Source: Candidatus Hadarchaeota archaeon
GTDB taxonomy: Archaea; Hadarchaeota; Hadarchaeia; Hadarchaeales; Hadarchaeaceae
NCBI GenBank assembly: GCA_040755315.1
Contig: JBFMBF010000001.1
Span: 29,109-93,108 of the forward strand
DNA length: 64,000 nucleotides
Direction of reading: 5' to 3'
The translations under genes were made by a program, and so were the position numbers. The notes beneath the pieces are model-generated. The model was not told where the DNA came from. It searched no databases and saw only the letters and a program-made list of their open reading frames with translations. Shown here piece by piece: positions 17,034 through 61,948 of the stretch. Position 1 is the stretch's first letter. Each line of letters begins with the position of its first letter.

Positions 17034-17289
17034 AATCAGGCTCTCAAAGCAGGTTGAGAAGTACCTAGAGAACCTGAGAAGCGTCTCTCCGAGAGAGGCC
17101 GAGCGTTGTGCCGGAGTCTTGAGAGAACTCGCGAAAGATCCCTTTACTCCTCGACCAGGCGTGGATATCAAAAAACTACACAGGGTGAGGGGCCTTGATT
17201 ACCGTCTCCGTGGGGGCCGCCACAGGTTTTACTTCGCCGTCATGGAGGAGGAACAAACCGTGCACGTGAAGCTCGCGTACTTCAAATGA
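17008..17289 (+). CDS. RelE/ParE-family type II toxin
   Basis: GFKIRLSKQVEKYLENL N-terminus and a C-terminal KKLHRVRGLDYRLRGGRHRFYFAVMEEEQTVHVKLAYFK segment typical of RelE/ParE toxins. The start overlaps the antitoxin 3' end by about 26 nt. Confidence 0.6.
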   Translation: MSSRDLGFKIRLSKQVEKYLENLRSVSPREAERCAGVLRELAKDPFTPRPGVDIKKLHRVRGLDYRLRGGRHRFYFAVMEEEQTVHVKLAYFK

Positions 17290-17450
17290 CATACAAGCTG
17301 TGTGAATGTAGATTTTGAGGAGTTGGAACTCTTCACCCTCTAGAAACGATGAATCTAAACTATTTTCTGCATCTCAACGGCGGCTCCACAAACGAAAGCG
17401 ACCGTTCCGATAATGTTGCATATCTTTATGAGAGTAACACGCACTAATAT

Positions 17451-18773
17451 GTGACGAAAATGATAAGAAGCAAAGCAGTAGTAATAGGACTTTTTGCGGC
17501 ATCGTTGCTGGCCGTTTTGTCGCTTGCTATTTTCAGTGGTGGAGTGTTGAAACAAGGAAGTCCAGGGGGAAAACCCACACCATCTGGGCCGGAATCTGGA
17601 ACAACTGGGACAAATATCCATTTTGGAGTGGTAGGCGCTTTACCCAGTTTTCCAAATGAGCTGAGAGAAGCGGGGGTTGGGATCGTGAGGGTGGGGATAG
17701 ATTGGAGCGTGACAGAACCGACAAATGATTCGTACAACTGGACACAGCTGGACACCATGGTCCAAAGTGCGGAAAACGCCGGCGTTGAACTTCTTGGTTA
17801 TTTTATTTACGCGCCCCAGTGGGCCAAGAGAAATCCAAGTTCTAACCAAGATATCTGTGAAATTAACAACATGAATGATTTCAGGCAATTTGCCAAAGAT
17901 GTCGCGAAAAGATATGATGGCAGCAATCCGGCGCTTGGAGAAATGAAATACATAGAAATTCTCAACGAAGTTACCTTCCCCAATTTCTATGAGCAAAATC
18001 CGATTGATACATATTCAGATTGGTTGATAAACGGTTATGGAGGAGTTAAGGAAGGAAACCCAAACGCGGTTGTTTTAATCGGGGCATTTTTCGACCCTCT
18101 CGATCATGCGGGGGGCGTCTTGGAAAATGAAAGAGTGTTCATAGACAAAATGTTGCAAGATTACAGCCAATATTACGATATAGTCAACTTCCACAGCTAC
18201 TCCAATTACGACAATGGGATTACAGAAACGGCGCAATACGTAAAAGAGCGCATGGCGCAGTTTGGAGTTAACAAACCGATGTGGATCACAGAAACCAATA
18301 CCATGTTTTCTTATGCAGACCCAGATTGGCAAAATAAGAATGCAAGGGATGTGGTAAAAATGTACGCCCGGGCCTTCGGAGAAAATGTTGAAAAAGTGTT
18401 TTGGTTTACTTTTGTGGGGCTTCCATTGCCCGCAGAGGACTCCGTAAACGGCATCGTGCCAAAAAATGTCACTTTAGGTTGGAATGTGAAGGGATCTGCA
18501 GTATACCACCCCAGACAAGCATATTACACTTATAAGTTAATGACTTCCAAATTGCGCGGATTTGTCTCTTCACAAAAAATTTCGGATAAACAGTACAAAT
18601 TCACTTTCACGGACAACAACCCAGTATATGTCTTGTGGGGCAGTGGGGGTTCATTACCATCGGAAATAACAGGGACAGTTAAAGTCACGGATTATCTGGG
18701 CAACGAACAGACCATAGGCGCTTCTAGTGTCGTCTTGAGTGACAATCCTGTTTTCATTACACAGCTCACGTGA
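17451..18773 (+). CDS. Secreted / membrane-anchored glycoside hydrolase (TIM-barrel clan GH-A, GH5/GH39-like)
   Basis: N-terminal TM/signal anchor and an ILNEV motif for the acid/base Glu. The WITETN motif would hold the nucleophile Glu. AT-rich (about 47% GC) compared with its neighbours. Confidence 0.55.
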   Translation: MTKMIRSKAVVIGLFAASLLAVLSLAIFSGGVLKQGSPGGKPTPSGPESGTTGTNIHFGVVGALPSFPNELREAGVGIVRVGIDWSVTEPTNDSYNWTQLDTMVQSAENAGVELLGYFIYAPQWAKRNPSSNQDICEINNMNDFRQFAKDVAKRYDGSNPALGEMKYIEILNEVTFPNFYEQNPIDTYSDWLINGYGGVKEGNPNAVVLIGAFFDPLDHAGGVLENERVFIDKMLQDYSQYYDIVNFHSYSNYDNGITETAQYVKERMAQFGVNKPMWITETNTMFSYADPDWQNKNARDVVKMYARAFGENVEKVFWFTFVGLPLPAEDSVNGIVPKNVTLGWNVKGSAVYHPRQAYYTYKLMTSKLRGFVSSQKISDKQYKFTFTDNNPVYVLWGSGGSLPSEITGTVKVTDYLGNEQTIGASSVVLSDNPVFITQLT

Positions 18774-18836
18774 TGGCGCCCGCCCGAAATTTTCAAATCA
18801 AGCCCTCCAAAGAAAGTTCCAGGTGAAACCGAAAAC

Positions 18837-19667: not shown

Positions 19668-19897
19668 ATGGGCTTCACCAGCGGCCCCGATTGGTTGGGA
19701 AAATTATTGAATACTTTCGGCGCTTTTTGAAGCCGCGAAGAAAAAGCGGTTTTAACGCGGCCAAAAAGGCGATTTAGGAGTGTTTGCAGCGGGTGAAAGT
19801 TCTTAAATATTACTTTCGCCGACCTCTCTCCCCAAAAACCGTTTGAATGCTCTAAGTCAAATCGAGCTAGATGAGTACACGAGGAGACCTCTCCGGC

Positions 19898-21130
19898 ATG
19901 TTTTGGCAAGTTAGCGATTTGCAACCTATCCCTGATTTATTATACGAAAAGGTTCATTTATGGGATTTCCCCCCGTCCCGTGTCTTTGTAAAACTGAACG
20001 AGCCCTGTCGGCGCTGGCTTTTTGATGAACTCCATATGAGGTGTCAAACCAGTCATTTACTCTTCATCTTGAACACAAGGTGCAAGGCTTATGGCATTGG
20101 CCGAAGGTACAATAGAGGACACATTCGTACTTGGAAGAATGGAAGTAAAAGCGATAATGGCAAGATAAAGGATGCCCGTATCCCACTGTGGGTTCTAATC
20201 GAATTTTCAAAGTTGTTATCTGGTTCTGTCAACGATGGCGGCACCATCATGCGCCAAATTGAAAGAGAAGTTGAATACTGCGCCGCTAGCGGCAAGTCGA
20301 TACCGGTTAGGTTCAAATTTCCTCTTTTATTGACGCCGGAACTAGTTTCCGTTATTTTCCATTTATGCGGCGATGGGCATATTGGTACAGAAACTGATAC
20401 TTCCCATTATAGGCAAACAAACAAAACAGCATTCCAAAACTTTGCACGTAAATTACATAACTCATTTGGAGATTTTAGGGAAACGATAGTGGAAGATTCT
20501 AAAATCATTATACCAAGAATCATTACAGATTTTTATCAGCACTATTTTGGCATTAATAAGTGCAGGTGGAACACAGCACGCATACCCAAGCGCATTAAAG
20601 CGCTTGGGAGAGAGTTTCTTGTTGCTGGGTTGGCGGCATTTATTGTCGACGAGGGGCATGTCGGCGACCATCTGGAAATCTACTCATCTAACCCCAATCT
20701 GTTGGCAGACATAAGAGAAATTGCCCAGAAGCTCGGGCACGATTCAACAGATATCCACGCCAAGTACCGATATGGGGTTTTGAATGGATACAGATTTTTA
20801 ATCAAGAAACAAGGCGCGCTGATTTTTTACAAAGATGTCAAAGACCTATCCGAGCGATTTCCAATGTGCGGTTTAGCTCATAAAAGCGCCTGTTTAGAAC
20901 TGGGGGTTAAAATTAAAAAGCGCGGATGGCAGAAGATGCATAATGGTGTTACTAAACACAACATATTGTCATTACTACAAAGCCCGATGACTGTTCAGGA
21001 ATTATCAGAACGGATACTTATCCCAGCCGCATCTGTTCGAGAGCATTTGTCGCAACTCCGGGCGGCAGGGAAAGTCAGACTTTTTGGAAAACATGGCAGG
21101 AGGACATTATGGTTAAGTAAAGTCCAATAG
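19898..21130 (+). CDS. Free-standing double-motif LAGLIDADG endonuclease-like protein with a C-terminal winged-helix domain
   Basis: Two LAGLIDADG-type motifs (VIFHLCGDGHIG and LVAGLAAFIVDEGHVG) and a C-terminal wHTH (MTVQELSERIL...LSQLRAAGKV). AT-rich (about 43% GC). The start could also be the ATG at 19871. Confidence 0.5.
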   Translation: MFWQVSDLQPIPDLLYEKVHLWDFPPSRVFVKLNEPCRRWLFDELHMRCQTSHLLFILNTRCKAYGIGRRYNRGHIRTWKNGSKSDNGKIKDARIPLWVLIEFSKLLSGSVNDGGTIMRQIEREVEYCAASGKSIPVRFKFPLLLTPELVSVIFHLCGDGHIGTETDTSHYRQTNKTAFQNFARKLHNSFGDFRETIVEDSKIIIPRIITDFYQHYFGINKCRWNTARIPKRIKALGREFLVAGLAAFIVDEGHVGDHLEIYSSNPNLLADIREIAQKLGHDSTDIHAKYRYGVLNGYRFLIKKQGALIFYKDVKDLSERFPMCGLAHKSACLELGVKIKKRGWQKMHNGVTKHNILSLLQSPMTVQELSERILIPAASVREHLSQLRAAGKVRLFGKHGRRTLWLSKVQ

Positions 21131-22435
21131 CTTCCTTTGGGTTAGTTTGTCTTTCAAAATTCTGCTCACGCTTATCCATTTTTTGATTGGGACGCTTAAA
21201 GCGTTTGATAAGTATTCCAACGCTTTTTGGAAGGATGTAAATTTTACAGGTTCCTTCGCCAACAATGCCCTGACCGATTCACGCGTTAACCAGACCCCCA
21301 CGGGCAGAATGTATCCCGGCCTGATCTCCCTGAGCACCAGCGCCGACGCTTGCCTCTTTTCCTCTTCAAGCTTCTCGGCCACCGCCAGCCTGGAGGAGAA
21401 ATAGCAGCCCCCAACTTCCGGGTAAGTGGTCCTCCCTTGGTAAGGCTCCCAGTCTGCAAGCATCGCTGGTGCCGTAGCCCACCTGTCAGGGTTCCATGTC
21501 GTCCCAGGGAACCAAGCTTCAATCCACTCAAAGCTCCATTTTTCAGGCGCGAGGATGGCCACAAACCTGTTGTCAAGCTGCTCAAAGTAGTAAACGCGGT
21601 ACTCGTCAATTGTGTCGAACTGCTTTATTCTGTCCACCAGCTCCTGCGAGATTATCGAGTCGACGGCGGTAATGCTCCAGCGGGTCGGGACCAGCCTTCG
21701 CCTGTCCCCCGTGCCGAACATCCCGAGGCTGAAGGAACGCTGGATTTGGGTCACAAGCACGCCGTCGTGGTAAAGGTCCAGCACGGCGTCTGCAGCCTTC
21801 AGGTCCCTGTCGTAATACGCATTCTCTATCTTGGGGTTGGTGTTCACGTCAGATGAGCTGAAAGACTTCATAGGGGCCGATGGGCCAAATGGCTGAATCT
21901 CGCTTCCCAAGGTGATTGTTTTTGAAGGCAGCCTGTCAAGATTGACCTCGGCGTCAACCGGCTGCTTCCCCATCGCCAGCTCCTGCATAGAGTCTATGAG
22001 TCTGCCGCCCTCGCGGGCATCGTGGACGCTGGCTTTTGCCATTCCTCTTATCAGTGAGAACCGGTAGTCTACGATCTCCTTAATGTCCTTCCCGACCCAC
22101 AGTTCCGGCGTGTCAAGTATGGTCGTGTCCCCCTTGAAAGGCGGGACCATCGGCCCAATGTAGACCTTAGGATAGCCGATTCTCCCCACAAAGACGCCTG
22201 GCGGGGTGGAGCCCTCGATTCTTGTGGAAGTTATTTTCAGCGACGACCTGGCCAGAGACTGCGCCCGCGCCACCACAGGGCAGCTGAGCTTCCCGCAGAG
22301 CATCCTACCCCCCTTGCAGAGCAGACACATGGAGCCGGATCGGCCCGGGTTCAGCTTGAAATCATTTGGCGTAAAATTTCCCAGGTATTCACGCGATATT
22401 ACGTCCTGCAGCCACCGGGTCTGGTATATGGGCAT
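21113..22435 (-). CDS. Nre-family putative DNA repair protein (DUF650/DUF651-like)
   Basis: N-terminal Cys cluster CLLCKGGRMLCGKLSCPV; about 440 aa, matching archaeal Nre proteins. The assignment is tentative. Confidence 0.4.
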   Translation of the reverse strand: MPIYQTRWLQDVISREYLGNFTPNDFKLNPGRSGSMCLLCKGGRMLCGKLSCPVVARAQSLARSSLKITSTRIEGSTPPGVFVGRIGYPKVYIGPMVPPFKGDTTILDTPELWVGKDIKEIVDYRFSLIRGMAKASVHDAREGGRLIDSMQELAMGKQPVDAEVNLDRLPSKTITLGSEIQPFGPSAPMKSFSSSDVNTNPKIENAYYDRDLKAADAVLDLYHDGVLVTQIQRSFSLGMFGTGDRRRLVPTRWSITAVDSIISQELVDRIKQFDTIDEYRVYYFEQLDNRFVAILAPEKWSFEWIEAWFPGTTWNPDRWATAPAMLADWEPYQGRTTYPEVGGCYFSSRLAVAEKLEEEKRQASALVLREIRPGYILPVGVWLTRESVRALLAKEPVKFTSFQKALEYLSNALSVPIKKWISVSRILKDKLTQRKLLDFT

Positions 22436-27135: not shown

Positions 27136-27528
27136 ATGAAGAAGAAGCCGGAGCTTTCGGTGGATGTCGTCATCAAGGCACGGGAAGGGGTGGTGTTGAT
27201 CAAGCGGAGGAAGAACCCCTTCAGGGGAGGATGGGCGCTCCCGGGTGGTTTCGTGAAGTACAAGGAGAGGGTAGAGGACGCCGCCGTCAGGGAGGTTAAG
27301 GAGGAGACGGGCCTGGAGGTCGGGATTGAAAGGCTGGTCGGGGTCTACTCCGCCCCGGACAGGGATCCCCGCGGGCACACGGTCACAGTGTGTTTTTTGG
27401 CGAGGCCGGTGGGAGGCAGGCTGAAGGCCGGGTCGGACGCGGCCGGCGCCAGGTTTTTCAAGAAAATACCGTGGAGAAAGGTGGCGTTCGACCACGCGAA
27501 GATTTTAAAGGACGCGGGTTTCAGGTGA
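27136..27528 (+). CDS. NUDIX hydrolase
   Basis: Nudix box GGWALPGGFVKYKERVEDAAVREVKEETGL. Confidence 0.75.
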   Translation: MKKKPELSVDVVIKAREGVVLIKRRKNPFRGGWALPGGFVKYKERVEDAAVREVKEETGLEVGIERLVGVYSAPDRDPRGHTVTVCFLARPVGGRLKAGSDAAGARFFKKIPWRKVAFDHAKILKDAGFR

Positions 27529-27532
27529 AGCT

Positions 27533-27859
27533 ATGCAGTTTTGCAAGAAGTGCGGGTCGCTGATGTTGCCTAAGAAGATTGATGGGGACGTTTTTCTCAC
27601 GTGCACTTCATGCGGCCACTCCGTGAAGGCTGAGGGGTCCGAGGAGTACAAGATGGTGAAAAAAAGCGAGGATAAGGAGGAGGTCACGGTCGTGGAAGAA
27701 AAATCTGGGCCAGCTTTACCTACAACACGAGCACATTGTCCTAAATGTGGCCACGGTACTGCATACTGGTGGATGCGGCAGACGCGTGCAGGGGATGAAC
27801 CAGCAACACGGTTTTACCGCTGTGTAAAATGTGCCCACACTTGGAGAGAATACACATAG
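27533..27859 (+). CDS. tfs: Transcription factor S (TFIIS-like; RpoM-like C-terminal zinc ribbon)
   Basis: N-terminal zinc ribbon CKKCGS...CTSCGH and a C-terminal zinc ribbon CPKCGH...RAGDEPATRFYRCVKCAHTW with an acidic DE loop. Codon usage shifts to AT-rich from about 27700 onward. Confidence 0.85.
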   Translation: MQFCKKCGSLMLPKKIDGDVFLTCTSCGHSVKAEGSEEYKMVKKSEDKEEVTVVEEKSGPALPTTRAHCPKCGHGTAYWWMRQTRAGDEPATRFYRCVKCAHTWREYT

Positions 27860-28028
27860 TAACTGATTATTTCGGTGCTTCTGTAGATGAGATAGACTCA
27901 AAACACAAAAAAGTGTGCCAAATCTCAAATTAGGCGGCGCTTAAAAGTGCTTGGGAGAAAGCCGAATACTTTCTGCAACCTCTACAAAAGTAGTTTAAGA
28001 TTTAGCAATTACCATAAACAGACACATC

Positions 28029-28823
28029 ATGAAAATGAAATGGTCGGAAGAAGAAATAGAAACGCTAAAAAAAGGATATTCAAAAATGGGGAGCCCATAC
28101 CTAACAACTGTTTTGAACAGAACTCAATGTGCAATAAATGTAAAGGCCAAAAGGTTAGGGTTGAAAGGATTTTCTGGGCACTGCCGCCGTTACAGCATGG
28201 ATGAAAATTATTTTGAACTAATAGACCACCCCAGACGCGCTTATTTACTTGGTTTACTGATGGCAGATGGTTATGTGTTTGGGAATAAAACGGCAAGTTA
28301 TGGGGTAGAACTGGGGTTGAAAATTTCTGATAGAGAACTTGTTAACATGTTAAAGACTGAACTTAAGGCGGAACACCCAATAAGAATACGCCCTCGAGGA
28401 AATACTGCGGATATTAGACTGATAGTGTTTTCAAAAAAATTGGCAGAATCATTAGTTGGGTGGGGAGTGAAGCAGAGGAAATCGCTAAGAGAGCGTTATC
28501 CACCTATTTTAGATGATGAAGAGCTCCACAGATTCTTTATTTTAGGATATTCTGATGGCGATGGCAGCATCAGCATCGACCAACAAGGCAAGTATAGATA
28601 CCTGAAGTGGCAACTTGTTGGGAACGGGAGATTTACCCAAACGGTTGCGTGTATTGTCCAAAAATTTTGTGGAGCAAGGGGCACCGTTTTCAAAAGCAAA
28701 AAAGTGCATGGAGATTTTACCGAGTTGCGATTTTGGGGGAAAGAAGCTGAAAAAGCCCTTCGATGGTTATACGGCAATGACACAACGAAAATTGGATTAA
28801 AACGCAAGAGGAAAGCTGGTTGA
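28029..28823 (+). CDS. LAGLIDADG homing endonuclease (double-motif, free-standing)
   Basis: Two LAGLIDADG motifs (YLLGLLMADGYV and FFILGYSDGDGSI). AT-rich. Located immediately 3' of tfs and followed by a duplicated tfs 3' end. Confidence 0.75.
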   Translation: MKMKWSEEEIETLKKGYSKMGSPYLTTVLNRTQCAINVKAKRLGLKGFSGHCRRYSMDENYFELIDHPRRAYLLGLLMADGYVFGNKTASYGVELGLKISDRELVNMLKTELKAEHPIRIRPRGNTADIRLIVFSKKLAESLVGWGVKQRKSLRERYPPILDDEELHRFFILGYSDGDGSISIDQQGKYRYLKWQLVGNGRFTQTVACIVQKFCGARGTVFKSKKVHGDFTELRFWGKEAEKALRWLYGNDTTKIGLKRKRKAG

Positions 28824-28833
28824 AGTGGATTAA

Positions 28834-28916
28834 TGCAAAAAACATGTAGCTCCACATCCACCGACACGCTTTTACCGTTGCACGAAATGCAAGAAGGTAT
28901 GGAGGGAGTACGCGTA
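28834..28916 (+). pseudogene. Displaced native 3'-end remnant of tfs
   Basis: Translates to CKKHVAPHPPTRFYRCTKCKKVWREYA*, aligning with the intact TFS C-terminus (...DEPATRFYRCVKCAHTWREYT*). Codon usage is GC3-rich like native genes. Upstream homology is decayed and contains a stop. Confidence 0.6.
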
Positions 28917-28925
28917 GGTGGTTGA

Positions 28926-29270
28926 ATGGAGGAGGTCAGACCTGTCGTGAAGCCCGCAGTCCCCAGAAGGGTCTCCGAGGTGGTCCCGGGGGAGGAAAGG
29001 GTGAAGGTGGCTGGGAATGTCGTGGACAAGCAGGAGTCAGAGTTCACCATTGACGATGGGTCGGGGAGGCTGCTCGTGGTTGCGGAGGATCCGTCGCTGG
29101 CCGTCGCTGTCGATGTCGGCGCCAAGGTCATTGTTTTTGGAGTGCCGATGGGGCTAGAGGGGTCGGCCGAGCTCCACGCCGAGATAGTGCAGAGGGTGGA
29201 CAGGCTGAACCTTGAGCTTTACGTAGGGGCATTGCAGGAGATGGAAAAGCTGAGGCAGGAGGTCGGCTGA
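28926..29270 (+). CDS. OB-fold nucleic-acid-binding domain protein, hypothetical
   Basis: VKVAGNVVDKQESEFTIDDGSGRLLVV resembles the tRNA_anti-codon/OB-fold pattern; immediately upstream of the PCNA gene. Confidence 0.35.
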   Translation: MEEVRPVVKPAVPRRVSEVVPGEERVKVAGNVVDKQESEFTIDDGSGRLLVVAEDPSLAVAVDVGAKVIVFGVPMGLEGSAELHAEIVQRVDRLNLELYVGALQEMEKLRQEVG

Positions 29271-30025
29271 TGGTCAGGGTGAAGATGGAGGACTCGAAGG
29301 TCTGGAAGTCATGCGTGAAGGCCATGGTCAACATAATCGAGGAGGCCTCTTTCAAGTTCACCCCCGAGAAGGTCAAGATGATGGCGATGGATCCGTCTCA
29401 TGTCGCCCTTGTGGACTTTGAGCTTCCGGCATCCGCTTTCAGCGAGTATGAGGTGGAGGAGCCGGCCACCATCGGGGTCAACCTTATGGAGATGGACAAG
29501 GTTCTCTCCAGGGCGAAGCCGGACGATGAGCTTGCAATGGAGCTGGACGACAAGCAGAGCAGGCTGAACTTCACTTTCAAGGGGGCTTCAACCAGGAAGC
29601 TGAACATGGCGCTGATAGACGTGAGGGAAGCGGAACTGAAGGAGCCGAAAATTCAGTTCACGGCCACGGCCGAGGTGCTGGCCGGAGTCCTCCAGGATGG
29701 GCTGAAGGATGCTGAGCTGGTTGGGGACAAGGTGAGGTTTGACGTGAAGGACAAGGAGCTTTCCATGGTGGCGGAGGGGGACAAGGGGACATCCGAGCTG
29801 AAGCTTGGGGACAAGGACGAGGGGCTGGTGAAGCTCAAGGCGGACAGGCCTGCCGGGGCGACGTTCGGCATAAGGTATCTGGCGGACATGGTTGGCGGTG
29901 CGGGATCAGGGGACCAAGTCAGCATAAGCTTGGGCTCCGACCTGCCGATCCAGCTGGACCTCCCGATAGCCGGGGGGAAGGGGAGACTGCGCTTCCTGCT
30001 GGCGCCGAGGATAGAGGCTGAGTGA
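29270..30025 (+). CDS. pcn: DNA polymerase sliding clamp PCNA
   Basis: Two-domain PCNA fold with conserved segments (IDVREAELKEP linker region, LAPRIE C-terminus); about 250 aa. Confidence 0.9.
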   Translation: MVRVKMEDSKVWKSCVKAMVNIIEEASFKFTPEKVKMMAMDPSHVALVDFELPASAFSEYEVEEPATIGVNLMEMDKVLSRAKPDDELAMELDDKQSRLNFTFKGASTRKLNMALIDVREAELKEPKIQFTATAEVLAGVLQDGLKDAELVGDKVRFDVKDKELSMVAEGDKGTSELKLGDKDEGLVKLKADRPAGATFGIRYLADMVGGAGSGDQVSISLGSDLPIQLDLPIAGGKGRLRFLLAPRIEAE

Positions 30026-36262: not shown

Positions 36263-37607
36263 TGCTGTTTATGGCCTTTTCCAGTTCTTCCATGCCTATT
36301 TTCACAAGCTGCCCGGCTCGCTCCTCTGTCTTTGCCTCGGCGAAGCACCTGAACAAGGGCTCAGTGCCCGAGGGCCTCAGCAGCAGCCAGCCGTCGTCGA
36401 AGTCCACCCTCAAGCCGTCTATCCTGTTAAGCTTGTACTTTGAGAACCTCTCGGACAGGACTTCCAGGACCTTTTGCTTTAGCTCGTTTGGGCACTTGGC
36501 TCTCTGCTTCACCTGGTAGTAGTTTGGCAGGGTGGAGTTTAGCTCCGAGACGGTGCCTCCGCTCTCGTCGACAGCAGCCATGAACTGGATTGCAGTCATT
36601 ATTCCCTCCCGGCAGTAGGTCCAGTCGAAGAACAGCACCCCTCCGTTCTCCTCGCCGCCGAGGTCGCCGCCGTGTTTCTTGAACTCTCCGACTATCTCCG
36701 GCTCCCCCACGCGGGTCCTTGTCACGGTGCCGCCGAGCCTCGCGGCCATGTCGTCTATCACGGAGCTGGTCGCGACTGTTGTTATTATCCTTGGAGATTT
36801 TCTCCCCATGAGGTGGTGCATGGCAGCAAACGCGAACACCCTGTCCCCGCTCAGTATTTTTCCTGTCTCGTCCACCACCAAAGTCCTGTCTGCGTCGCCA
36901 TCGTGGGCAATCCCGGCATCAGCCTTGCAGGCGACCACTGTCTTGGCAAGCTCTCCCAGGTTTTCGGGCACGGGCTCCAGCTTTCGGCCGGGGAAGGTGC
37001 CGTCCAGCTGGGAGTTCATGGAGATCACCTGGCAGCCGAGTTCCCTGAGCAGTTGTGGCGTGACCAAAGTCCCGACCGCGTTGGCGCAGTCCACCACCAC
37101 CCTGAGCTTCCGCTTGAACTTGGGCACTTTCTTCAGGGTTGATTGTATGTAAGGGGCGATGGCGTCAGCAACAGCAGTTTTTCCTATCTCCTGCCACCCG
37201 ACGGTCTTCCCAACCTCCAGCGCACGTTCTATTTCCTTCTCGCGCTCCCGCTCGAAGCCGGCTCCGTCTGACCCCCAAAACTTCATCCCGTTGTACTCCG
37301 CAGGGTTGTGGGAGGCGGTGATGATCACTCCGGCATCGCATGAGAAGTGGGGGATGGCGAACGATAGGACAGGCGTCGGGGTCAGGCCGAGCCTCAGAAC
37401 ATCGCACCCGCCCGCGAGGAGCCCAGCCGTGACGGCGTTTTCGATCATGACGCTTGATGTCCGGTTGTCGTGCCCCACGGCGACCTTTTTTTTCCCGCCC
37501 AGGTGGTTGGCCAGAGCCAGCGCCAGCTTGAAAGCCATCTCAGGAGTCAGCTCCTTGTTGGCCAGCCCGCGGACGCCGAATGTTCCGAAAAGCTTTGCCA
37601 AGATCAC
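36255..37607 (-). CDS. Phosphoglucosamine mutase / phosphomannomutase (alpha-D-phosphohexomutase family)
   Basis: KLFGTFGVRG N-terminal motif and GIIITASHNPAEYNGMKF active-site Ser loop. Start set to a GTG near 37607; the ATG-based ORF to 37757 would overlap the divergent gene. Confidence 0.8.
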   Translation of the reverse strand: MILAKLFGTFGVRGLANKELTPEMAFKLALALANHLGGKKKVAVGHDNRTSSVMIENAVTAGLLAGGCDVLRLGLTPTPVLSFAIPHFSCDAGVIITASHNPAEYNGMKFWGSDGAGFEREREKEIERALEVGKTVGWQEIGKTAVADAIAPYIQSTLKKVPKFKRKLRVVVDCANAVGTLVTPQLLRELGCQVISMNSQLDGTFPGRKLEPVPENLGELAKTVVACKADAGIAHDGDADRTLVVDETGKILSGDRVFAFAAMHHLMGRKSPRIITTVATSSVIDDMAARLGGTVTRTRVGEPEIVGEFKKHGGDLGGEENGGVLFFDWTYCREGIMTAIQFMAAVDESGGTVSELNSTLPNYYQVKQRAKCPNELKQKVLEVLSERFSKYKLNRIDGLRVDFDDGWLLLRPSGTEPLFRCFAEAKTEERAGQLVKIGMEELEKAINSIT

Positions 37608-37699
37608 CAAGAGTAATAATCTGTCAGCTATTAAATCGTGCCTGTTTTTTTGCAAAGTTAGCTTTATTTCGGCGTCGAGAATTCTAAGTAAGGGGTATA

Positions 37700-38410
37700 A
37701 TGGCGAGCAAAAGTAAGATACGCGAGATTTACGAGGCGGATATTTACACACATCCAAAATTTTCTGAGGGAGTGCGGCTCAAAAAGCGAAAGGCCAAGGA
37801 GTCGAGAAACAGAAAAGCACTGGCCCAGATCAATGAACACGTTAAACTCAGAAGCGATTACAGAGTTTTGGATATCGGCTGTGGTCGTGGAGATTTTTTG
37901 TCACTTTTACCGGTCAAGAACAAGTATGGTGTAGAAATCAACCCAAAGGAGGTAAAAAGAGCAAGAGCAATAGGAATAGATGCGCGGGCGTTGGACGTAG
38001 AAAATGATCGGTTGCCGTACCCAGACAATTACATGGATTTGATTTTGTGCATGGAAGTGTTGGAGCATTTGTTTAACCCATCTTTGCTAATGTCCGAAAT
38101 GAAAAGGGTGTTAAAAAAAGGCGGTCACATTTACGCCACGGTTCCAAACGATCTTTACTGGCTGGGGAGCAGGATGAGAGTGTTTTTTGGGAAGCCGTTC
38201 ATAAAGTATGCTAAGGGTGCTTTACATCTCCACATAAAATTTTTTAACAAAGAAGTGTTGTCCAATCTTTTTGAAGAGGCAGGATTCAAAATAGTTTATG
38301 CCGGAGGGTTCCACTCAAAATCATTTCCCGCTTCTTTGGAAAAGTTCTTTGCCGCCCGTTTTACAAACTTGTTTGTTTCCACATACTCCATCGTTGCCAA
38401 AAAACCATGA
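37700..38410 (+). CDS. Class I SAM-dependent methyltransferase (Methyltransf_11-like)
   Basis: VLDIGCGRGDF motif I, acidic motif II, and LKKGGHIY motif. AT-rich compared with neighbours. Confidence 0.65.
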   Translation: MASKSKIREIYEADIYTHPKFSEGVRLKKRKAKESRNRKALAQINEHVKLRSDYRVLDIGCGRGDFLSLLPVKNKYGVEINPKEVKRARAIGIDARALDVENDRLPYPDNYMDLILCMEVLEHLFNPSLLMSEMKRVLKKGGHIYATVPNDLYWLGSRMRVFFGKPFIKYAKGALHLHIKFFNKEVLSNLFEEAGFKIVYAGGFHSKSFPASLEKFFAARFTNLFVSTYSIVAKKP

Positions 38411-38474
38411 CAATTTTTTCAATTGTTTGACCCGGATTAAGTGAGTATTAAATCTGATACAGGCAGTTTATCGT

Positions 38475-38552
38475 GGGCCCGTGGCCTAGTATGGATAAGG
38501 CGGCAGCCTTCTAAGCTGCAAATCGTGGGTTCAAATCCCACCGGGCCCGCCA
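38475..38552 (+). tRNA. tRNA-Arg (anticodon UCU), CCA encoded
   Basis: Manual cloverleaf: acceptor GGGCCCG/CGGGCCC, D-arm GCCT/AGGC, anticodon stem GCAGC/GCTGC with loop CTTCTAA, T-arm GTGGG-TTCAAAT-CCCAC, discriminator G, and CCA. Confidence 0.85.
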
Positions 38553-49852: not shown

Positions 49853-50485
49853 TTATCCCACCCGATTAACACCGGAGATTGTTAGTCCGGAAGGCGGGGT
49901 GGAAAATCCATCTCCATAACTGCTTGCTGTTAGTTCTAACACATCTCCTCTGTTCCACAGCATTGCGGCGGGTTTATGACCGGTTCCGTAACTGTTGGTT
50001 TCTTCGTTGTCATTGTCCACCCACAAATAAAGATACGCGTTTTCCCCATGCTCAAGTTTTCCAACTACAGTAACTGGTACGTGCAAACTCCAGCGAACAA
50101 ATGCGTTTTGGGCCGCAGAAGCCGCCCAGTAGCCATTCTCCTCCACATACCCTCGTGCGTAATTCTCCTGCCCCTTCACATCAGCGACAAATGTGCCCCA
50201 TCCGCGCGTGGTGTTGCTTATTTTTACGATTAGACCATGGTCTTTGTCTCCAACATATCTAAGAGATTTTACAGTTGTATAAAATCGTATTACCATATTT
50301 TCATTGCTAAATATTTCGCTAGAAGTTGTGTCACTGTCAAATACCTCTGCATTGAATTCCCCCACAACAGGATCTACTGTAGGAATAAATGGCGATTGTG
50401 TGACAATCAAAATCACAGTTGTCGTGATAGCAATAACTGTAACAATGCTTACAATTTTCCATTTTTTAGAACGAATGGCTTTCAT
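49853..50485 (-). CDS. Hypothetical membrane-anchored protein (N-terminal TM plus an extracytoplasmic domain of about 180 aa)
   Basis: AT-rich (about 40% GC). Start at the internal MKAIRSKKWKIVSIV; the longer ORF to 50686 is the antisense of the duplicated leader. No family recognised. Confidence 0.4.
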   Translation of the reverse strand: MKAIRSKKWKIVSIVTVIAITTTVILIVTQSPFIPTVDPVVGEFNAEVFDSDTTSSEIFSNENMVIRFYTTVKSLRYVGDKDHGLIVKISNTTRGWGTFVADVKGQENYARGYVEENGYWAASAAQNAFVRWSLHVPVTVVGKLEHGENAYLYLWVDNDNEETNSYGTGHKPAAMLWNRGDVLELTASSYGDGFSTPPSGLTISGVNRVG

Positions 50486-50586
50486 CTGTTGAACACCTTT
50501 TGAGCAAACCTCAGTTAATAATTCACGCCAAGTCTTAAATAATAAGTGGCCGAAGTTTCCAAGGTGAGAGGCTGAAATGCGGAATC

Positions 50587-53500
50587 TTGAGGCCGTTAGC
50601 TGTAGCTCTGGTCCTTTTGTTCGTGTCAACTTATCTCGCCCCGCTTTCCTCGGCTCTTGAAGAAAATTCAAGTGCAACGTTCTCATTTACCATCCCGCAA
50701 GATGAAAACACTCAGGCCGAAAACTCCTCGCAGGGTCCGGACGCAACCTCTCCGGACAACGGCGAGAACTTGGACAACTCGGAACCGGAGAACCTCGTCT
50801 GGTACTACGCCGAAAACCTGTGGGCCCCGGCAGAGGTGCACAGCCCGTTCGCCAACAGGGTTTTCTTCATAAACGCGCCCTATGACCCGACCGAAGGCCT
50901 GCCGGAGAACATGTTGGGGTTGCCGGATGGAGTATACTGCGACCTCAACGGCGGCCAGGCGACCGTGGGATTCCCAAACGAGGCCAGGAACGCTTTTCTA
51001 GACTACGGGGTGCCCATCCCTCCCGGCACTGACCTGATCATCTTTGACCGTGGAAGCCTTGACCTGCCGAACCTCGTGACTTTTGGTTTCGGTGCCCCTG
51101 TGGACGCGGACAACGACGGGATGGCGGATAATCCATCTGGCGTTGCCAGCTATATTGGAGGAGCAGTTTCTCCGCTGCCGTATGGCTCCATCGAACTCCT
51201 GAACCTGGCGTTTTTTGACATCGGCGATTACGGTCAATTGAACCCAATACCAAACAACTTGTTTGTGTCTGTAGACGATGCAGGCGACTACGACGTGGAC
51301 TCGTTTGAGATAGGGTTTTCGGTTCTAGATACAGCGCCGCCCACTTCCATGGTTCTGCCGTTCGATGGCGAGGAATACTGGAAGGAGCTTGAGCCGGGAC
51401 AGAGTTTTTCCGTCAGCGCGGTGGCGGCCGACAACGTTGGAGTGAGAAATGTCCAGCTCTGGTATAGGTATTCGCTCGACAACTGGACGGACAACGTGGC
51501 ATGGAAGAAGCGCGGCTGGCAGCTGTATGGGGCGGACGTGAGCGGCGCCGATGGATGGAGCTGGAACTTCACACCCGAGAAGTACGGGTACTACGAGTTC
51601 GTCAGCGTGGCGACTGATTCGAGTGGGAACCGGGAGGACAAGGAAAACGTGTTTAGAGATAACTTGGCGGAGGCGAGATGCAGAGTGGCGAAGGATCTGG
51701 TGAGAGTGGCGGTGATCTTCGCGGAACCAAACGATGTTGATAATTTGGGCCAGCGGAATTGGGTTGATCCACAAACTGGACAAACAGAAAACTTACCAAC
51801 TCGTGAATTTTTCCGAAGGACTTTTGGAATACTGAAGAGTTATTGCGATGAGGTTTCATCTGGGGCGTTGGCAGTTAGGTTAGAAGACGAAGATATACAC
51901 GATGCAAATGGTATTTGGTATACGCTTGGCATGCCGCAAAACAACTATCTTTATTTTTACAGACCAGCGGGCAGCTGGACATATTCAAATCAATTTCTCA
52001 TAGATGCGATAAACGCGGCGGATGTTGATATCGTGTATGGAGACTATAAAGCAGTTATTGTCGTTGGAGCACTTGGTACTTTTCCAGGGCTCTTTGCTTA
52101 CTATGGCGGGGCAGATTATAAACTGGAAGAAGTCAAGACTAACACAGATGAAATAGCGTACAACCCAATATTTTTTGACGAGTTAGATGTAGATCCAAAT
52201 GACCTTACGCTAGCTCACGAAGTTGGGCATGCGCTTGGAAAAATACTTGCTAATGAAAAGCTTCCAGAGCTTTACAATACAACTGGATCATGGGGAGATG
52301 TAGATGGCTGGGATCCAATGGGGAATGAGCGTTGGCCGGTCCACTATTCTTCTTGGAGTAAGGAGCGCCTGAAGTGGCTCAACTATCAAAAAGGCGACCT
52401 TACTTCACCTCTAGGCGGCGTTCTCGCTGGCCATATAGATGCACTACCAACTCTTGCTTATGGTGACAACGTATATTTCCTCAAGGTCGATCGGCAGGAC
52501 CAGTGGTGGTGGGGCTGGGGAAACGAGGTCTGGTACGCGTTGGAGTTTAGAACAAACGATCCAAGTGTTAGTAAGGGAGACACAGATGTGCGGGGCACCG
52601 GTTTGGTCATTTACCAAGTAGACTATAGTTGGGAACTGTGGGGGCTAAAATCATATACACGCGTAAATGTTGTAGAAAACGATCAAGACCCGGCCAGCCC
52701 AACTTGGCTTTTACCTTGGGAAATTTACCACTCGGGAATAGGTAATGGAGCGATATTTGCTGCGGGAGAAATTTTTTACCACACGGACGAGGCGTTTCCT
52801 TGGGGCAAAGTTCCCAGCATGAATTTTGTGGTGCAGTATCCATACCCGAAAAGCAGCGCCACAGCCGTGATGTTCCAGATTCCATACGAACTCCGCGGAG
52901 CACTGGCGTCGGCTTCTGTGCAACCGTCGCCGGACTTGGATTTGCATGCTTACGCTGCAGATGGCAGACATGTGGGGGTTAATTATGAAACCGGCGAATA
53001 TGAGATTGAAATAACTGGGGCAACTTCGTCAGGCGACCTATTCCAGGGGAGCGAATGGATTTCAGTTCCTTCAGGCATCGATGCTTTTTTTGTCGTTAGC
53101 AGCCGCGATGTGAAGGAGGCTATACAAGCAGGCGTTGAGCTTGAGAACGAAGCCGGCCTCTATGCCATCAGAGTGGCCCATACAGATGAAAACAGAAATC
53201 TGTATTTCTCACATGCAATTGGACGAGAAATAATGCCTGGTGAAGAAATTGCCCACACGACCACCGCAAGAGTTAAAATAGAAAATATTGCCACCAAGCC
53301 TTTCTCACCGAACCGCGATGGCATAAAAGACACGGCCACTGTTTCATATTTACTTATCGACAACTTCTGGCAAAAGGCCAAGGTTTTAATTGACATTTAC
53401 AATGACGACAACAAGCTGGTTAAAAGGTTGTTTTCGGATTGGGAGAACGCTGGCCGCGATGGTCTGCTTTATTTGTATACATGGGACGGCCGAGATGAAG

Positions 53501-58947: not shown

Positions 58948-59126
58948 AGGCAGGCACCCCACCATCGCGGTTGACAAATGGTGCCCCAATTTTCCGGAAG
59001 CGCCAATGTGTGCAGCGGTATTTTTACTGGTTTTCAATTTTTGCATTGATTCAACTGAACTTATAATTGTTTATATGTTTGGTTAACTGGGCAAAAAATG
59101 TTTTTCAGCACAACACACACAATTTT

Positions 59127-59151
59127 GAGCCGGAATCCCGTCCGGTCCGCT
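59127..59151. repeat. Direct repeat copy 1 (TGAGCCGGAATCCCGTCCGGTCCGC)
   Basis: 23/25 identical to a second copy at 59957..59981. The repeats flank an AT-rich two-gene cassette. Each contains the short dyad GCCGG...CCGG(C/T). Confidence 0.5.
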
Positions 59152-59229
59152 TTTGCACGGGTTATCCACTGGAAAACGAACGCCAACCTGCAGAAAGCTT
59201 AATACTCTTTTCAGCTTTTGTTAATATTG

Positions 59230-59724
59230 ATGTACTACGAAAAAGTTTTGCGAGAGTTGAACGCAAGGGGGATCCTGTATATCGTGGCCGGAGGAATAGC
59301 CGTGAATCTACACGGCGTGCCTCGGGCAACGTCCGATTTGGATATACTTTTGTACTTGGAAAGTTCCAACGTTGGTAAACTTGTGGACATCATGAAAAAA
59401 CTTGGGTACAAGCCACGGGCGCCGGTCAGTTTCACCGATATAACTCTCGAAAACCTAGAAAAGTGGGTCAAAGAAAAACACATGAAGGCGTTCAGTTTTA
59501 TAAATCCCAAAGTACCGTACGAAGAAGTGGACATCATCTTAGACCATCCATTGGACTTCGAACGAGTTTACAAAAGAATAGAGTTCATAACAGCCAAAAA
59601 CGTGTCCATCCCGCTCATTTCACTGGATGATTTAATCAAACTGAAAAAACACTCTAAACGTTTACAGGATTTGTCCGATGTAGAGGCTTTAAGAAAGGTG
59701 AAAAAAATGAAAAAGGTGGCTTGA
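59230..59724 (+). CDS. Nucleotidyltransferase-fold protein (minimal NTase, AbiEii/DUF1814-like), hypothetical
   Basis: ILYIVAGGIAVNLHGVPRATSDLDILL resembles the GG...R.T.DLD motif of minimal nucleotidyltransferases. AT-rich. Confidence 0.4.
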   Translation: MYYEKVLRELNARGILYIVAGGIAVNLHGVPRATSDLDILLYLESSNVGKLVDIMKKLGYKPRAPVSFTDITLENLEKWVKEKHMKAFSFINPKVPYEEVDIILDHPLDFERVYKRIEFITAKNVSIPLISLDDLIKLKKHSKRLQDLSDVEALRKVKKMKKVA

Positions 59725-59725
59725 C

Positions 59726-59899
59726 ATGGAAAGAAAAGGTTTCAGGTACAACACTACCAAAGAAACAATAACAAATTACGCTGGGTTATCAGCCAGACAG
59801 AAACTGGAATGGTTGGAAGAAGCCAACAGATTTTTTTACAACTCCATGTCTCAAAGTAAAAGAAAAATAATGGAAAAATTCAGGTCTGGAAAGATTTGA
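59726..59899 (+). CDS. Small hypothetical protein (57 aa) immediately downstream of the NTase gene
   Basis: MERKGFRYNTTKETITNYAGLSARQKLEWLEEANRFFYNSMSQSKRKIMEKFRSGKI. Adjacent to the NTase stop; below the ORF-track size cutoff. No family recognised. Confidence 0.2.
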   Translation: MERKGFRYNTTKETITNYAGLSARQKLEWLEEANRFFYNSMSQSKRKIMEKFRSGKI

Positions 59900-59956
59900 A
59901 CGGGTTGATAAAAAAGAAAAAATTGGATCCGCCTTCGGCACAACCCGCCCATTCAT

Positions 59957-59981
59957 GAGCCGGAATCCCGCCCGGCCCGCG
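59957..59981. repeat. Direct repeat copy 2 (TGAGCCGGAATCCCGCCCGGCCCGC)
   Basis: Lies 8 nt beyond the transaldolase stop codon, so it could double as that gene's 3' hairpin. Confidence 0.5.
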
Positions 59982-59988
59982 GTTTGGA

Positions 59989-60663
59989 TTACTTCTTTTC
60001 CGCTTTCTTGAACTCCACCCAGCACTTGTCGAACTCAGCAATGGTCTCCTCTGTCTTCGGGTGGTACACCATCTGCATCAGTATCTTGTAGGGGATTGTG
60101 ATAACGTGCGCCCCGGCCACGGCCGCCTCCGCCACGTTCTCCGGCGCCCTTATGCTGCCAACGATGATCTTTGTGTCAAGGCCGCCCTGGTCGATTATGC
60201 TCCTGGACTCCCTGATTATCCTCACCGGGTCTATCCCCGCGTCCTTTGTCCTGCCGAAGAAGATGCTGGCATAAGTCGCCCCGGCCTTGGCCGCCAGCAA
60301 GACCTGGTTGGTGTTGACTAGGACCGTCATGTTGGTCTTGATGTTTTCCTCGCTGAGCTTGCTGACGATTTTCATGCCCAGCCCATCCGGGTACATCGGG
60401 ACCTTGATCACGATGTTCTTCGGGTTCCAGCTTGAGTACTCCCTGGCCTCGTCAAGCAGATCCTTCAAGGAGCAGTTTGTCCCCGTCAGCTCCACGCTGA
60501 GCGGCCCGTCCACAAGATCGAGTATCTCGCGGGCCCTGTTCTTGAAGTTGACGCCCTTCTCCGCCAAGAATATCTTTTGGTTGGTAGTAACTCCGGTAAA
60601 GATTCCCCATGGCAACAGCTCCTTGATTTCTTTAACGCTGGCGGTGTCAAGGAATAATTCCAC
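59989..60663 (-). CDS. tal: Transaldolase / fructose-6-phosphate aldolase (short TalC/Fsa-type)
   Basis: MELFLDTAS N-terminus and a conserved Schiff-base Lys context (IVIKVP); about 224 aa. GTG start overlapping the gmhB stop. Confidence 0.8.
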   Translation of the reverse strand: MELFLDTASVKEIKELLPWGIFTGVTTNQKIFLAEKGVNFKNRAREILDLVDGPLSVELTGTNCSLKDLLDEAREYSSWNPKNIVIKVPMYPDGLGMKIVSKLSEENIKTNMTVLVNTNQVLLAAKAGATYASIFFGRTKDAGIDPVRIIRESRSIIDQGGLDTKIIVGSIRAPENVAEAAVAGAHVITIPYKILMQMVYHPKTEETIAEFDKCWVEFKKAEKK

Positions 60664-61260: not shown

Positions 61261-61863
61261 TCAGGATTTTGTTATCAGCTCACGCAGTCTCGCAGCGAGG
61301 AGGTGGGAAAGCACTGAGTGGAAGCCCTCCACCTGCGGCGTTGAGTTGGCCGGCACCACCACGCAGACATCCGCCACCTTCTTCAGCATGCCGCCGTCGA
61401 AGCCCGAGAAGCCGATGACCTTCCCGCCGTTGTCCTTGACGAACCTGACGGCCTTCAGGAGGTTCTGTGACCACGGCCCGGCCTTGTCGGCGCCAGCCCC
61501 CCCATGGACGCTGAATGCGACGAAGATGTCCCCCCGGTTCATCAGGTTCCTCAGCTGTTCAACGTACACATTTTCCCATCCGAGGTCGTTTGTGATTGCC
61601 GTGGTGAGAGGGATGTTTTCATTGAGGGAAATGGTCCTGAACCTCTTCTTGCCGTGGACCGAGGTGAACTTTGACAGGTCGGCCGCGAGGTGCATTGCCG
61701 TTGCAGCCGACCCCCCGTTGCCGGCCGTGAATACCTGTTTCCCCTCTTTCCAGGCCTTGAACAAGAGCCCGACAGCCCTAGAAATGTTTTCCTGGGAAAT
61801 GCTGCCCGCTATCCCAGCGACACCATGCAGATAATTGTCCACGAACGCCTTGTTTTGCACCAT
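61261..61863 (-). CDS. gmhA: Sedoheptulose-7-phosphate isomerase (SIS domain; GmhA)
   Basis: SIS-domain pattern VFTAGNGGSAATAMHLAADL and HGGAG, matching phosphoheptose isomerase; about 200 aa. Confidence 0.8.
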   Translation of the reverse strand: MVQNKAFVDNYLHGVAGIAGSISQENISRAVGLLFKAWKEGKQVFTAGNGGSAATAMHLAADLSKFTSVHGKKRFRTISLNENIPLTTAITNDLGWENVYVEQLRNLMNRGDIFVAFSVHGGAGADKAGPWSQNLLKAVRFVKDNGGKVIGFSGFDGGMLKKVADVCVVVPANSTPQVEGFHSVLSHLLAARLRELITKS

Positions 61864-61948
61864 TCACCCAAGCTCTGTCTACTGGACAATAAAAATCTTC
61901 TTGGGCAAGGCTAAAATAAGCGCCATAGACTAGTCTTTTGGTGTTCAA

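Follow-up and report, generated by a model that had tools for sequence, protein, structure and literature searches.

A mosaic tfs gene, a free-standing LAGLIDADG endonuclease gene, and a displaced native gene end at one locus of a Hadarchaeota archaeon

The tfs gene, encoding the core transcript-cleavage factor TFS (transcription factor S), was analyzed in a 64,000-nucleotide stretch of a Candidatus Hadarchaeota archaeon metagenome-assembled genome (MAG) (GenBank assembly GCA_040755315.1, contig JBFMBF010000001.1, positions 29,109 to 93,108 of the forward strand; hereafter the window, whose own coordinates are used throughout). The TFS and endonuclease proteins each have a 100% identical NCBI entry from a Candidatus Hadarchaeota archaeon, on a 100.9-kb contig. 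The gene begins with native and ends with foreign sequence, and it is followed by a free-standing endonuclease gene and then by the displaced native tfs end: the foreign tfs 3′ part lies at 27701-27859, the endonuclease gene at 28029-28823, and the native remnant at 28858-28917. We regard the segment 27701-28857 as probably a mobile, free-standing homing-endonuclease cassette that would have entered by intron-less homing, with carry-over of the 3′ end of its target gene. The cassette measures 1157 bp and stands in place of 99 bp (33 codons; nt 169-267 of the tfs gene of L001, the names L001 to L030 denoting related or compared contigs and genomes), and 169 nt separate the tfs stop from the endonuclease open reading frame (ORF). 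An earlier sequence-only reading of this DNA had proposed that a homing endonuclease gene arrived together with a donor 3′ end that displaced the recipient's own, and this proposal is supported by an empty site in relatives, by the mosaic structure of tfs, by the native character of the remnant, and by recurrence of the arrangement in another lineage. The public annotation, of which the protein names were consulted, names the endonuclease and gives no sign of a chimeric tfs or of a remnant.

As that reading had stated, the tfs gene is intact: positions 27533-27859 form one continuous ORF of 108 codons, and its product matches TIGR01384 TFS_arch with 104.2 bits (cut-off 64.75). Pfam reports Zn_ribbon_TFIIS at 4.9e-21, with both PF02150 (RPB9-type N-ribbon) and PF01096 (TFIIS-type C-ribbon) represented. 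Residues C69, C72, C97, C100, D88, and E89 fall on columns that are invariant in 43 TFS sequences, and the foreign 3′ part is in frame and keeps the four cysteines and D88/E89. The abrupt switch of codon usage that had been placed near 27700 is confirmed by a drop in the G+C content of third codon positions (GC3) at 27695, from 39/51 (0.76) to 14/50 (0.28; Fisher p = 1.2e-6), with the maximum-likelihood change point at tfs codon 55. Codon usage is therefore nonuniform across the gene, and its 3′ part is, as claimed, AT-rich like the endonuclease gene (GC3 of 0.35); the neighboring genes have a GC3 of 0.77-0.81, and in L001 the two parts of tfs are uniform (0.76 and 0.74). DNA identity to L001 is 88% over tfs codons 1-56 and 63% over 27713-27859, the final 147 nt. 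In the 5′ part, the proportion of synonymous differences from L001 (pS) is 0.42, with a nonsynonymous proportion (pN) of 0.044, similar to the flanking genes (pS 0.40-0.51), against a pS of 0.97 in codons 57-108 and 0.94 in the last 48 codons; the latter value exceeds the random expectation because the codon biases of the window 3′ part and of L001 are opposed. At the protein level, the N-terminal half of TFS is 91% identical to that of L001 and the C-terminal half 62%, the C-terminal half being 79-81% identical to other Hadarchaeota TFS proteins and to the cassette allele of L002. The left junction can be placed only to ~27695-27704, because it lies within the hypervariable linker. The tfs gene of the window is thus a mosaic of native codons 1-56 and foreign codons ~57-108.

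A search for repeats pairs 27800-27831 with 28858-28889 as a direct repeat, and the stretch 28858-28917 translates to PPTRFYRCTKCKKVWREYA followed by a stop, lacks a start codon, and has stops in frame on its 5′ side. The sequence-only reading had described a GC3-rich, decayed copy of the last 25-30 codons of the intact gene, ending at 28916. A match to a tfs 3′ end is indeed present here and is significant on alignment, but it consists of 19 codons plus a stop that occupies 28915-28917, one base beyond the proposed end, and its GC3 is only moderate (0.55). Nor is it a decayed copy of the intact 3′ end: 52/60 nt are identical to the native tfs ends of L001 and L012 and only 39/60 to the window's own intact 3′ end, and it is therefore the displaced native end, a nearly undecayed native allele. 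Compared residues are all identical to L001 (17/17), and there is no indel, no stop, and one amino-acid change in the 19 codons; with L012 as outgroup, ~3 of the 8 nucleotide substitutions fall on the window branch, too few for dating the insertion. On its 3′ side, the remnant is followed by the 8-nt GTGGTTGA and then the ATG of the OB-fold gene, as in L001. The 34 nt that precede it (28824-28857) are not derived from tfs and consist of a frameshifted endonuclease tail plus junction sequence.

The uninterrupted locus is preserved in L001 (Hadarchaeota MAG026; PCNA 94% identical), the sole relative recovered by a PCNA scan of one genome per species, in which the OB-fold gene follows tfs after 8 nt without an endonuclease gene. 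Window positions 27137-27700 align to L001 4926-5489 with 88.5% DNA identity, and 28858-29300 align to L001 5589-6031 with 87.4%. The check on related genomes that had been proposed gave the same picture in four lineages (L001, L009, L010/11, and L012/13), all of which lack both the endonuclease gene and the downstream cassette and have the OB-fold gene directly after tfs. The gene order tfs-OB-PCNA is present at all compared loci, and wherever the endonuclease gene occurs (the window, L002-4, and L005-8) it lies between tfs and the OB-fold gene. Among 5.8 billion proteins, the endonuclease has two close homologue clusters, with 74% and 72% identity, and both are found in the order tfs, endonuclease, OB-fold, PCNA on Hadarchaeota-like contigs.

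One of these lineages repeats the architecture of the window. L002, L003, and L004 are three separate assembly records (ENA, JGI, and Logan) that are 100% identical over their shared sequence, and compared with the endonuclease-free L012 (~82% identical), tfs nt 170-277 are replaced in L002. The L002/L012 junctions fall at tfs nt 169/170 and 277/278 and the window/L001 junctions at 168/169 and 267/268, a few nucleotides apart. The GC3 of L002 tfs shifts from 0.83 to 0.45, and ~52 tfs codons beside the endonuclease gene are of the foreign type in both the window and L002, a pattern of co-conversion. The L002 remnant, RFYRCTKCEKVWRKYA followed by a stop, sits directly before the OB-fold gene and is more decayed than that of the window (46/60 nt identical to L012, with three amino acids changed and a stop in frame immediately 5′ of it). 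The two remnants are identical over their first 23 nt, including an ACG where L001 and L012 have ACT, and both start directly 3′ of the codons for the acidic DE hairpin, within the RSADEPST-coding stretch. The earlier placement of the insertion at the acidic loop of TFS is correct for this right junction, just past the DE codons, and incomplete in that the whole C-terminal zinc-ribbon domain (~52 codons) has been exchanged.

The other lineage, L005-8, comprises four contigs that are 99.3-99.9% identical, in which, by comparison with L009, the endonuclease gene has been inserted cleanly between genes; native sequence restarts 13 nt before the OB start codon. There is no remnant, tfs is compositionally uniform, and the GC3 of the host (0.45-0.52) is near that of the endonuclease gene (0.39). 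L005 and L006 both come from JGI sample 3300025021, are 99.5% identical over their shared sequence, and both carry the endonuclease gene; the element therefore looks fixed rather than polymorphic in that population. Their upstream gene calls differ (189 versus 184 aa for endonuclease dU and 181 versus 187 aa for the next ORF). The endonuclease-free tfs genes of L009 (44-370) and L010 (3001-3324) have GAA CCA, not GAG CCA TCG, and end in H(T/V)WREY, as do the cassette-type alleles; both may be resistant by nature, or may have stayed behind when an endonuclease was lost.

Table 1. Parts of the tfs locus in the window
Feature	Positions	Strand	Basis or remark
tfs 5′ part, native, codons 1-56 (N-terminal zinc ribbon and linker)	27533..27700	+	L001 alignment, GC3
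tfs 3′ part, foreign, codons ~57-108 and stop (C-terminal TFIIS-type zinc ribbon, acidic DE loop)	27701..27859	+	
Spacer, variable part	27860..27963	+	Flanked by imperfect 20-nt direct repeat; cassette alignment
Conserved promoter-like block 5′ of endonuclease gene	27964..28028	+	TATA-like TTTAAG at ~27994-27999
Endonuclease gene, free-standing: three-helix helix-turn-helix (HTH) domain and double-LAGLIDADG core	28029..28823	+	264 aa as called
Endonuclease ORF tail, frameshifted	28806..28849	+	DNA and protein alignment with L002 and L005
Right cassette junction, non-homologous filler	28850..28857	+	L001 similarity restarts at 28858
Displaced native tfs 3′ end, 19 codons and TAG	28858..28917	+	L001/L012 match, direct repeat
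OB-fold gene, native, downstream flank of insertion	28926..29270	+	91% protein identity to L001

LAGLIDADG enzymes are characterized by site-specific cutting of a long target that leaves 4-nt 3′ overhangs. The double-LAGLIDADG gene that the sequence-only reading had located at 28029-28823 is borne out by a Pfam LAGLIDADG_3 match of 35.2 bits (1.5e-8; cut-off 22.5) and by two motifs, LLGLLMADGYV (D80) and ILGYSDGDGSI (D178), the second of which gives a LAGLIDADG_1 match that is below threshold (19.3 against a cut-off of 23.1). Residues D80, G81, and D176-G179 are invariant among 32 homologues, and the protein matches PHROG 4645 "endonuclease" at 1.4e-33. An AlphaFold2 model made with these 32 homologues (predicted local distance difference test [pLDDT] 88.1; predicted template modeling score [pTM] 0.78) contains a three-helix N-terminal domain and two alpha-beta-beta-alpha-beta-beta-alpha repeats. 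Its top Foldseek matches in the PDB are I-Tsp061I, I-AniI, and I-OnuI (E 2e-9 to 1e-8, probability 1.00, with moderate TM-scores of 0.47-0.59); phmmer with the endonuclease sequence found no match in the PDB at E <= 1. The product is predicted to be a monomeric two-motif LAGLIDADG endonuclease with an N-terminal HTH domain, and we take its fold as established by the model. Comparison with the homologues places the likely start at 28035.

The dN/dS of the endonuclease gene is 0.08-0.11 against L002 and L005, with saturated synonymous distance, a range that, on sequence comparison, shows long-term purifying selection on the protein. Together with the invariant catalytic aspartates and the structural matches of the model, a dN/dS of ~0.1 makes the endonuclease look functional. 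The window copy differs from those of L002 and L005 by a 1-nt deletion within 28806-28812 (context AAGAG-GAAAG), which brings the stop forward to 28821-28823. When read in +1, the ancestral frame runs on as ESWLKWINAKNM and a stop to 28849, and the tail motif WLKWMEAK, kept in both homologues, is cut off in the window copy. The deletion reflects either the beginning of endonuclease decay following invasion or an error in the MAG consensus. A tblastn search with the endonuclease found no second copy within the window.

Within the spacer, a block of ~65 nt (27964-28028) is conserved in all three cassette lineages (the window, L002, and L005), the other spacer sequence being variable, and a TATA-like TTTAA(G/A) lies ~30 nt before the endonuclease ATG in all three; by the usual spacing of the archaeal B recognition element (BRE) and TATA box, this block is a putative promoter. 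An imperfect 20-nt direct repeat at 27865-27884 (GATTATTTCGGTGCTTCTGT) and 27964-27983 (GAATACTTTCTGCAACCTCT) brackets ~80 nt (27885-27963). The window and L005 are alike in having an extra segment of ~100 nt here, and the L002 spacer has one repeat copy without the bracketed segment, which suggests a deletion or insertion between the 20-nt repeats. The RNA fold of 27860-27990 is better than that of shuffled sequences (z = -2.85), and an Rfam scan of 27300-29300 at E <= 1 returned no family. An intron (including the archaeal bulge-helix-bulge type) or ribozyme was rejected: no such family matched in that interval, tfs needs no splicing to be whole, and a splice from 27700 to 28858 would cost 33 essential codons, two zinc-binding cysteines among them. 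An intein was rejected as well, since the endonuclease has an ORF of its own that does not share the frame of tfs.

The right end of the cassette bears on where it came from. The last endonuclease codons in L005 are native tfs-OB intergenic sequence that is common to the endonuclease-free L010, ATGGAG(G/A)CCAAATATGGAAGAA, and the right end of the L002 cassette consists of the L005/L010-type tfs-OB spacer plus ATG (GGATGGAGGCCAAGCATG), whereas natives of the GC-rich clade (the window, L001, L002, and L012) have a different 8-nt spacer (regions compared: L002 2860-2895, L005 5775-5810, and L010 3350-3380). The composite cassette therefore seems to carry a scrap of the donor's tfs-OB spacer or downstream gene start, and this points to a candidate origin in an L005/L010-like genome.

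Movement between lineages is evident from divergence. The endonuclease proteins are 72-74% identical in all three lineage pairs, whatever the distance between the hosts, whose proteins are 65-75% identical between the window and L002 and 43-62% identical between the window and L005. For the window and L005, pN is 0.157 in the endonuclease gene and 0.23-0.42 in host genes. The endonuclease is better conserved than PCNA across this distance, and it has therefore moved horizontally. Its next relatives outside Hadarchaeota are 27-35% identical and are free-standing genes in phage-like contigs (L014-L016, L018, and L027-L030). Some of these phage-context relatives adjoin YonJ/YonG-type genes, and another, flanked by genes that look structural, is extended at its C terminus by a stretch that appears AP2-like by eye. 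Given the barely decayed remnant and a cassette GC3 that has not ameliorated, the cassette probably reached the window lineage well after its split from L001.

These observations can be ordered into a mechanism. The endonuclease would cut endonuclease-free tfs at or close to the codons of the acidic loop (RSADEPST), which is the best-conserved motif of TFS/TFIIS, although any point of the replaced 99 bp could be where it cuts. The broken left end would then invade the donor, from which it would copy the endonuclease gene together with the spacer and the 3′ part of tfs. When the element first entered the GC-rich clade, the right end would have been joined at the break without homology, leaving the native 19-codon remnant. 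That remnant could have served as the right homology arm in later transfers, which would account for the coinciding junctions of the window and L002 and for the first 23 nt that their remnants share. With the tfs 3′ end that comes along, the invaded allele would stay functional and become resistant to renewed cutting. Around the junction, cassette alleles differ from the L001/L012 alleles at 7/22 nt (for example, GAG CCA TCG against GAA CCA GCA), differences that could confer such immunity. The history would begin in lower-GC Hadarchaeota, with the endonuclease gene simply inserted between tfs and the OB-fold gene, as it is in L005-8; the element would next have crossed into the GC-rich clade, where a non-homologous right join created the remnant; and the composite would then have spread within that clade with the identical junctions of the window and L002.

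Several points weigh against this account. Synonymous sites are saturated even against the nearest cassettes, which are only ~74% identical, and no closer donor, above 72-74% protein identity, was found in the 5.8-billion-protein search, a scan of JGI metagenomes, or a scan of IMG/VR. Between the window and L002, the endonuclease pS of 0.66 is about that of host genes (0.58-0.70), a divergence that, taken alone, would be compatible with long co-residence in the GC-rich clade. The youth of the remnant rests on only eight substitutions, and the proposed target site on the position of the junction. Nor does the account supply a mechanism for the coinciding left junctions of two lineages or a route for DNA between Hadarchaeota cells. 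Finally, the window copy of the endonuclease may be impaired by the loss of its tail, or the MAG consensus may be wrong there.

The comparable divergence of endonuclease and host genes between the window and L002 would be expected if the cassette were an old resident. It would have entered once, in the ancestor of the GC-rich clade, and descended vertically in the window and L002 lineages without recent homing into the former, and L001 and L012 would later have lost it or reverted by conversion with endonuclease-free alleles. The coincidence of both junctions and the shared start of the two remnants also fit such a single entry. We nevertheless consider it unlikely. Neutral decay since an insertion as deep as the clade, at a host pS to L001 of ~0.42-0.5, should have erased the remnant, and the cassette GC3 of 0.28-0.35 has not ameliorated in a host with a GC3 of ~0.78. 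L001 and L012, moreover, are native and GC3-rich across the replaced 99-108 bp, and a loss would thus have needed re-import of a native allele.

The frameshift in the window copy invites another explanation, in which the endonuclease is inactive, or has been domesticated as a DNA-binding regulator of the WhiA kind, and was carried along passively by ordinary homologous or illegitimate recombination with foreign Hadarchaeota DNA. LAGLIDADG and HTH domains are indeed also combined in the non-nuclease WhiA family, and JGI labels some of the distant homologues WhiA. Yet a passenger gene would hardly occupy one site in three lineages while being sporadically distributed and showing similarities incongruent with those of the hosts, or have its junction at the same codon of the target's most conserved motif in two of them; both catalytic aspartates are invariant at a dN/dS of ~0.1, and the nearest outside relatives are the free-standing phage endonucleases of PHROG 4645. 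This explanation seems to us improbable for the element as a whole, although it may hold for the frameshifted window copy. An assembly chimera of two co-occurring Hadarchaeota populations, joined in conserved tfs sequence, is barely credible: the window does come from a MAG, and conserved genes are typical points of strain chimerism, but two switches would be needed, the join at 28857/28858 is non-homologous and yields a duplicated tfs end of a kind that assemblers do not create, native sequence on both sides has the same 87-88% identity to L001, and the architecture recurs in the three separate records of L002-4.

Mobile homing with carry-over of the gene end remains the preferred reading, and a stronger form of it can be put forward tentatively. 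The element may be a natural "home-and-rescue" gene-drive unit with fixed ends, made up of a recoded, cleavage-resistant catalytic domain of TFS, a promoter, and the endonuclease, and may be actively circulating among deep-subsurface Hadarchaeota; the case for this is suggestive and somewhat short of even. If it were so, each invasion would exchange the catalytic zinc ribbon of TFS across lineages whose DNA differs by >25%, homing endonucleases would drive domain-level exchange of alleles in archaeal core transcription genes, and the locus would be direct evidence of ongoing DNA exchange between lineages of an uncultured phylum.

The surroundings of the cassette were also compared. The nudix, tfs, OB-fold, and PCNA genes are spaced by 0-8 nt in relatives that lack the endonuclease (compare window 28918-28928 with L001 5649-5659), a tight packing that suggests one operon. 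The cassette puts 1.06 kb between OB-PCNA and the upstream genes, and the remnant retains the original 8-nt GTGGTTGA junction and the sequence 5′ of the OB start codon. Elsewhere in the window there are other AT-rich islands, at 17251-18800, 19701-21250, 37601-38500, 50151-50700, 58951-60050, and 61851-62900 (GC 0.34-0.41; window mean 0.53), whose genes are of accessory type: a glycosyl hydrolase, an ArsR-type HTH protein, S-adenosylmethionine (SAM) methyltransferases including the FkbM type, and a DUF6036 nucleotidyltransferase. These islands may be further horizontally acquired segments, and none of them is related to the endonuclease.

The tfs cassette is well documented, biologically neat, and mechanistically not unexpected. 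It offers an unusually clean record of homing in an archaeal chromosome, in which the filled site, the empty site, and the imported and discarded gene ends can be compared, with two further lineages available at different stages of the element's life cycle. It also implies DNA exchange among uncultured subsurface archaea and presents a hazard for gene trees, as the C-terminal domain of Hadarchaeota TFS can differ in history from the rest of the gene. The enzyme is a compact endonuclease from a thermophile lineage with a predicted target, the RSADEPST-coding stretch of tfs. To our knowledge, nearly all other known LAGLIDADG enzymes of archaea come from rRNA introns and inteins. Our literature search found no paper linking Hadarchaeota or TFS with homing endonucleases and no description of this layout in an archaeal chromosome.

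Among known systems, the archaeal enzymes of introns and inteins (I-DmoI, I-Tsp061I, and PI-PfuI) share the catalytic fold, the archaeal I-Tsp061I being the best structural match, and likewise target a conserved sequence of an informational gene, here a predicted one. The sequence relationship is remote, however, and the host is spared by splicing in those systems and by a replacement gene end here. Synthetic "home-and-rescue" or "cleave-and-rescue" drives, engineered with Cas9 in insects, combine a nuclease against an essential gene with a recoded, resistant copy of that gene. The logic is the same, and the analogy is a functional one only, the present element being natural, protein-guided, and archaeal. 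Haloferax also has a free-standing LAGLIDADG gene on record, for which neither a target nor a mosaic was described (PMC5867893).

The sequence-only reading had described the arrangement as known mainly from phages. Free-standing phage endonucleases do perform intron-less homing with co-conversion, their cleavage and insertion sites lying apart (PMC2988022), and the likeness extends to a gene placed between genes, sporadic among relatives, with co-converted flanking target sequence and a resident allele presumably protected by differences in the neighboring gene. The phage enzymes, however, are of the GIY-YIG and HNH families rather than LAGLIDADG and act in a co-infected cell, and since recombination is homologous on both flanks, their homing does not normally leave a duplicated target remnant behind. 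A closer precedent is provided by the hybrid genes made by mobile ORFs in fungal mitochondria: atp6 of Allomyces macrogynus; atp6, atp9, cox2, and nad3 of Glomus; atp9 of Rhizopus; and cox2 of Mortierella (PMC3630166). There, a gene core is followed by a foreign in-frame C-terminal part, a LAGLIDADG or GIY-YIG ORF, and the displaced native remnant, and in Glomus the remnant is 91-98% identical to the sister taxon and 64-81% identical to the inserted copy (PMC3630166). The layout is identical to that of the window, the remnant is in both cases nearer to the sister taxon (here, the 52/60 against 39/60 nt given above), and horizontal arrival is inferred in both. The present case differs in lying on a chromosome-like contig (100.9 kb) with archaeal informational genes rather than in a mitochondrial genome, and in striking a transcription factor gene rather than a gene of the respiratory chain. 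Its endonuclease is a separate ORF with a promoter-like block, whereas those at atp6 and nad3 are fused in phase, it has an N-terminal HTH domain and phage endonucleases as its nearest outside relatives, and the exchanged piece is a whole structural domain. The strategy of bringing one's own gene end, so far one of fungal mitochondrial mobile ORFs, thus appears also on a core transcription gene of an archaeon.

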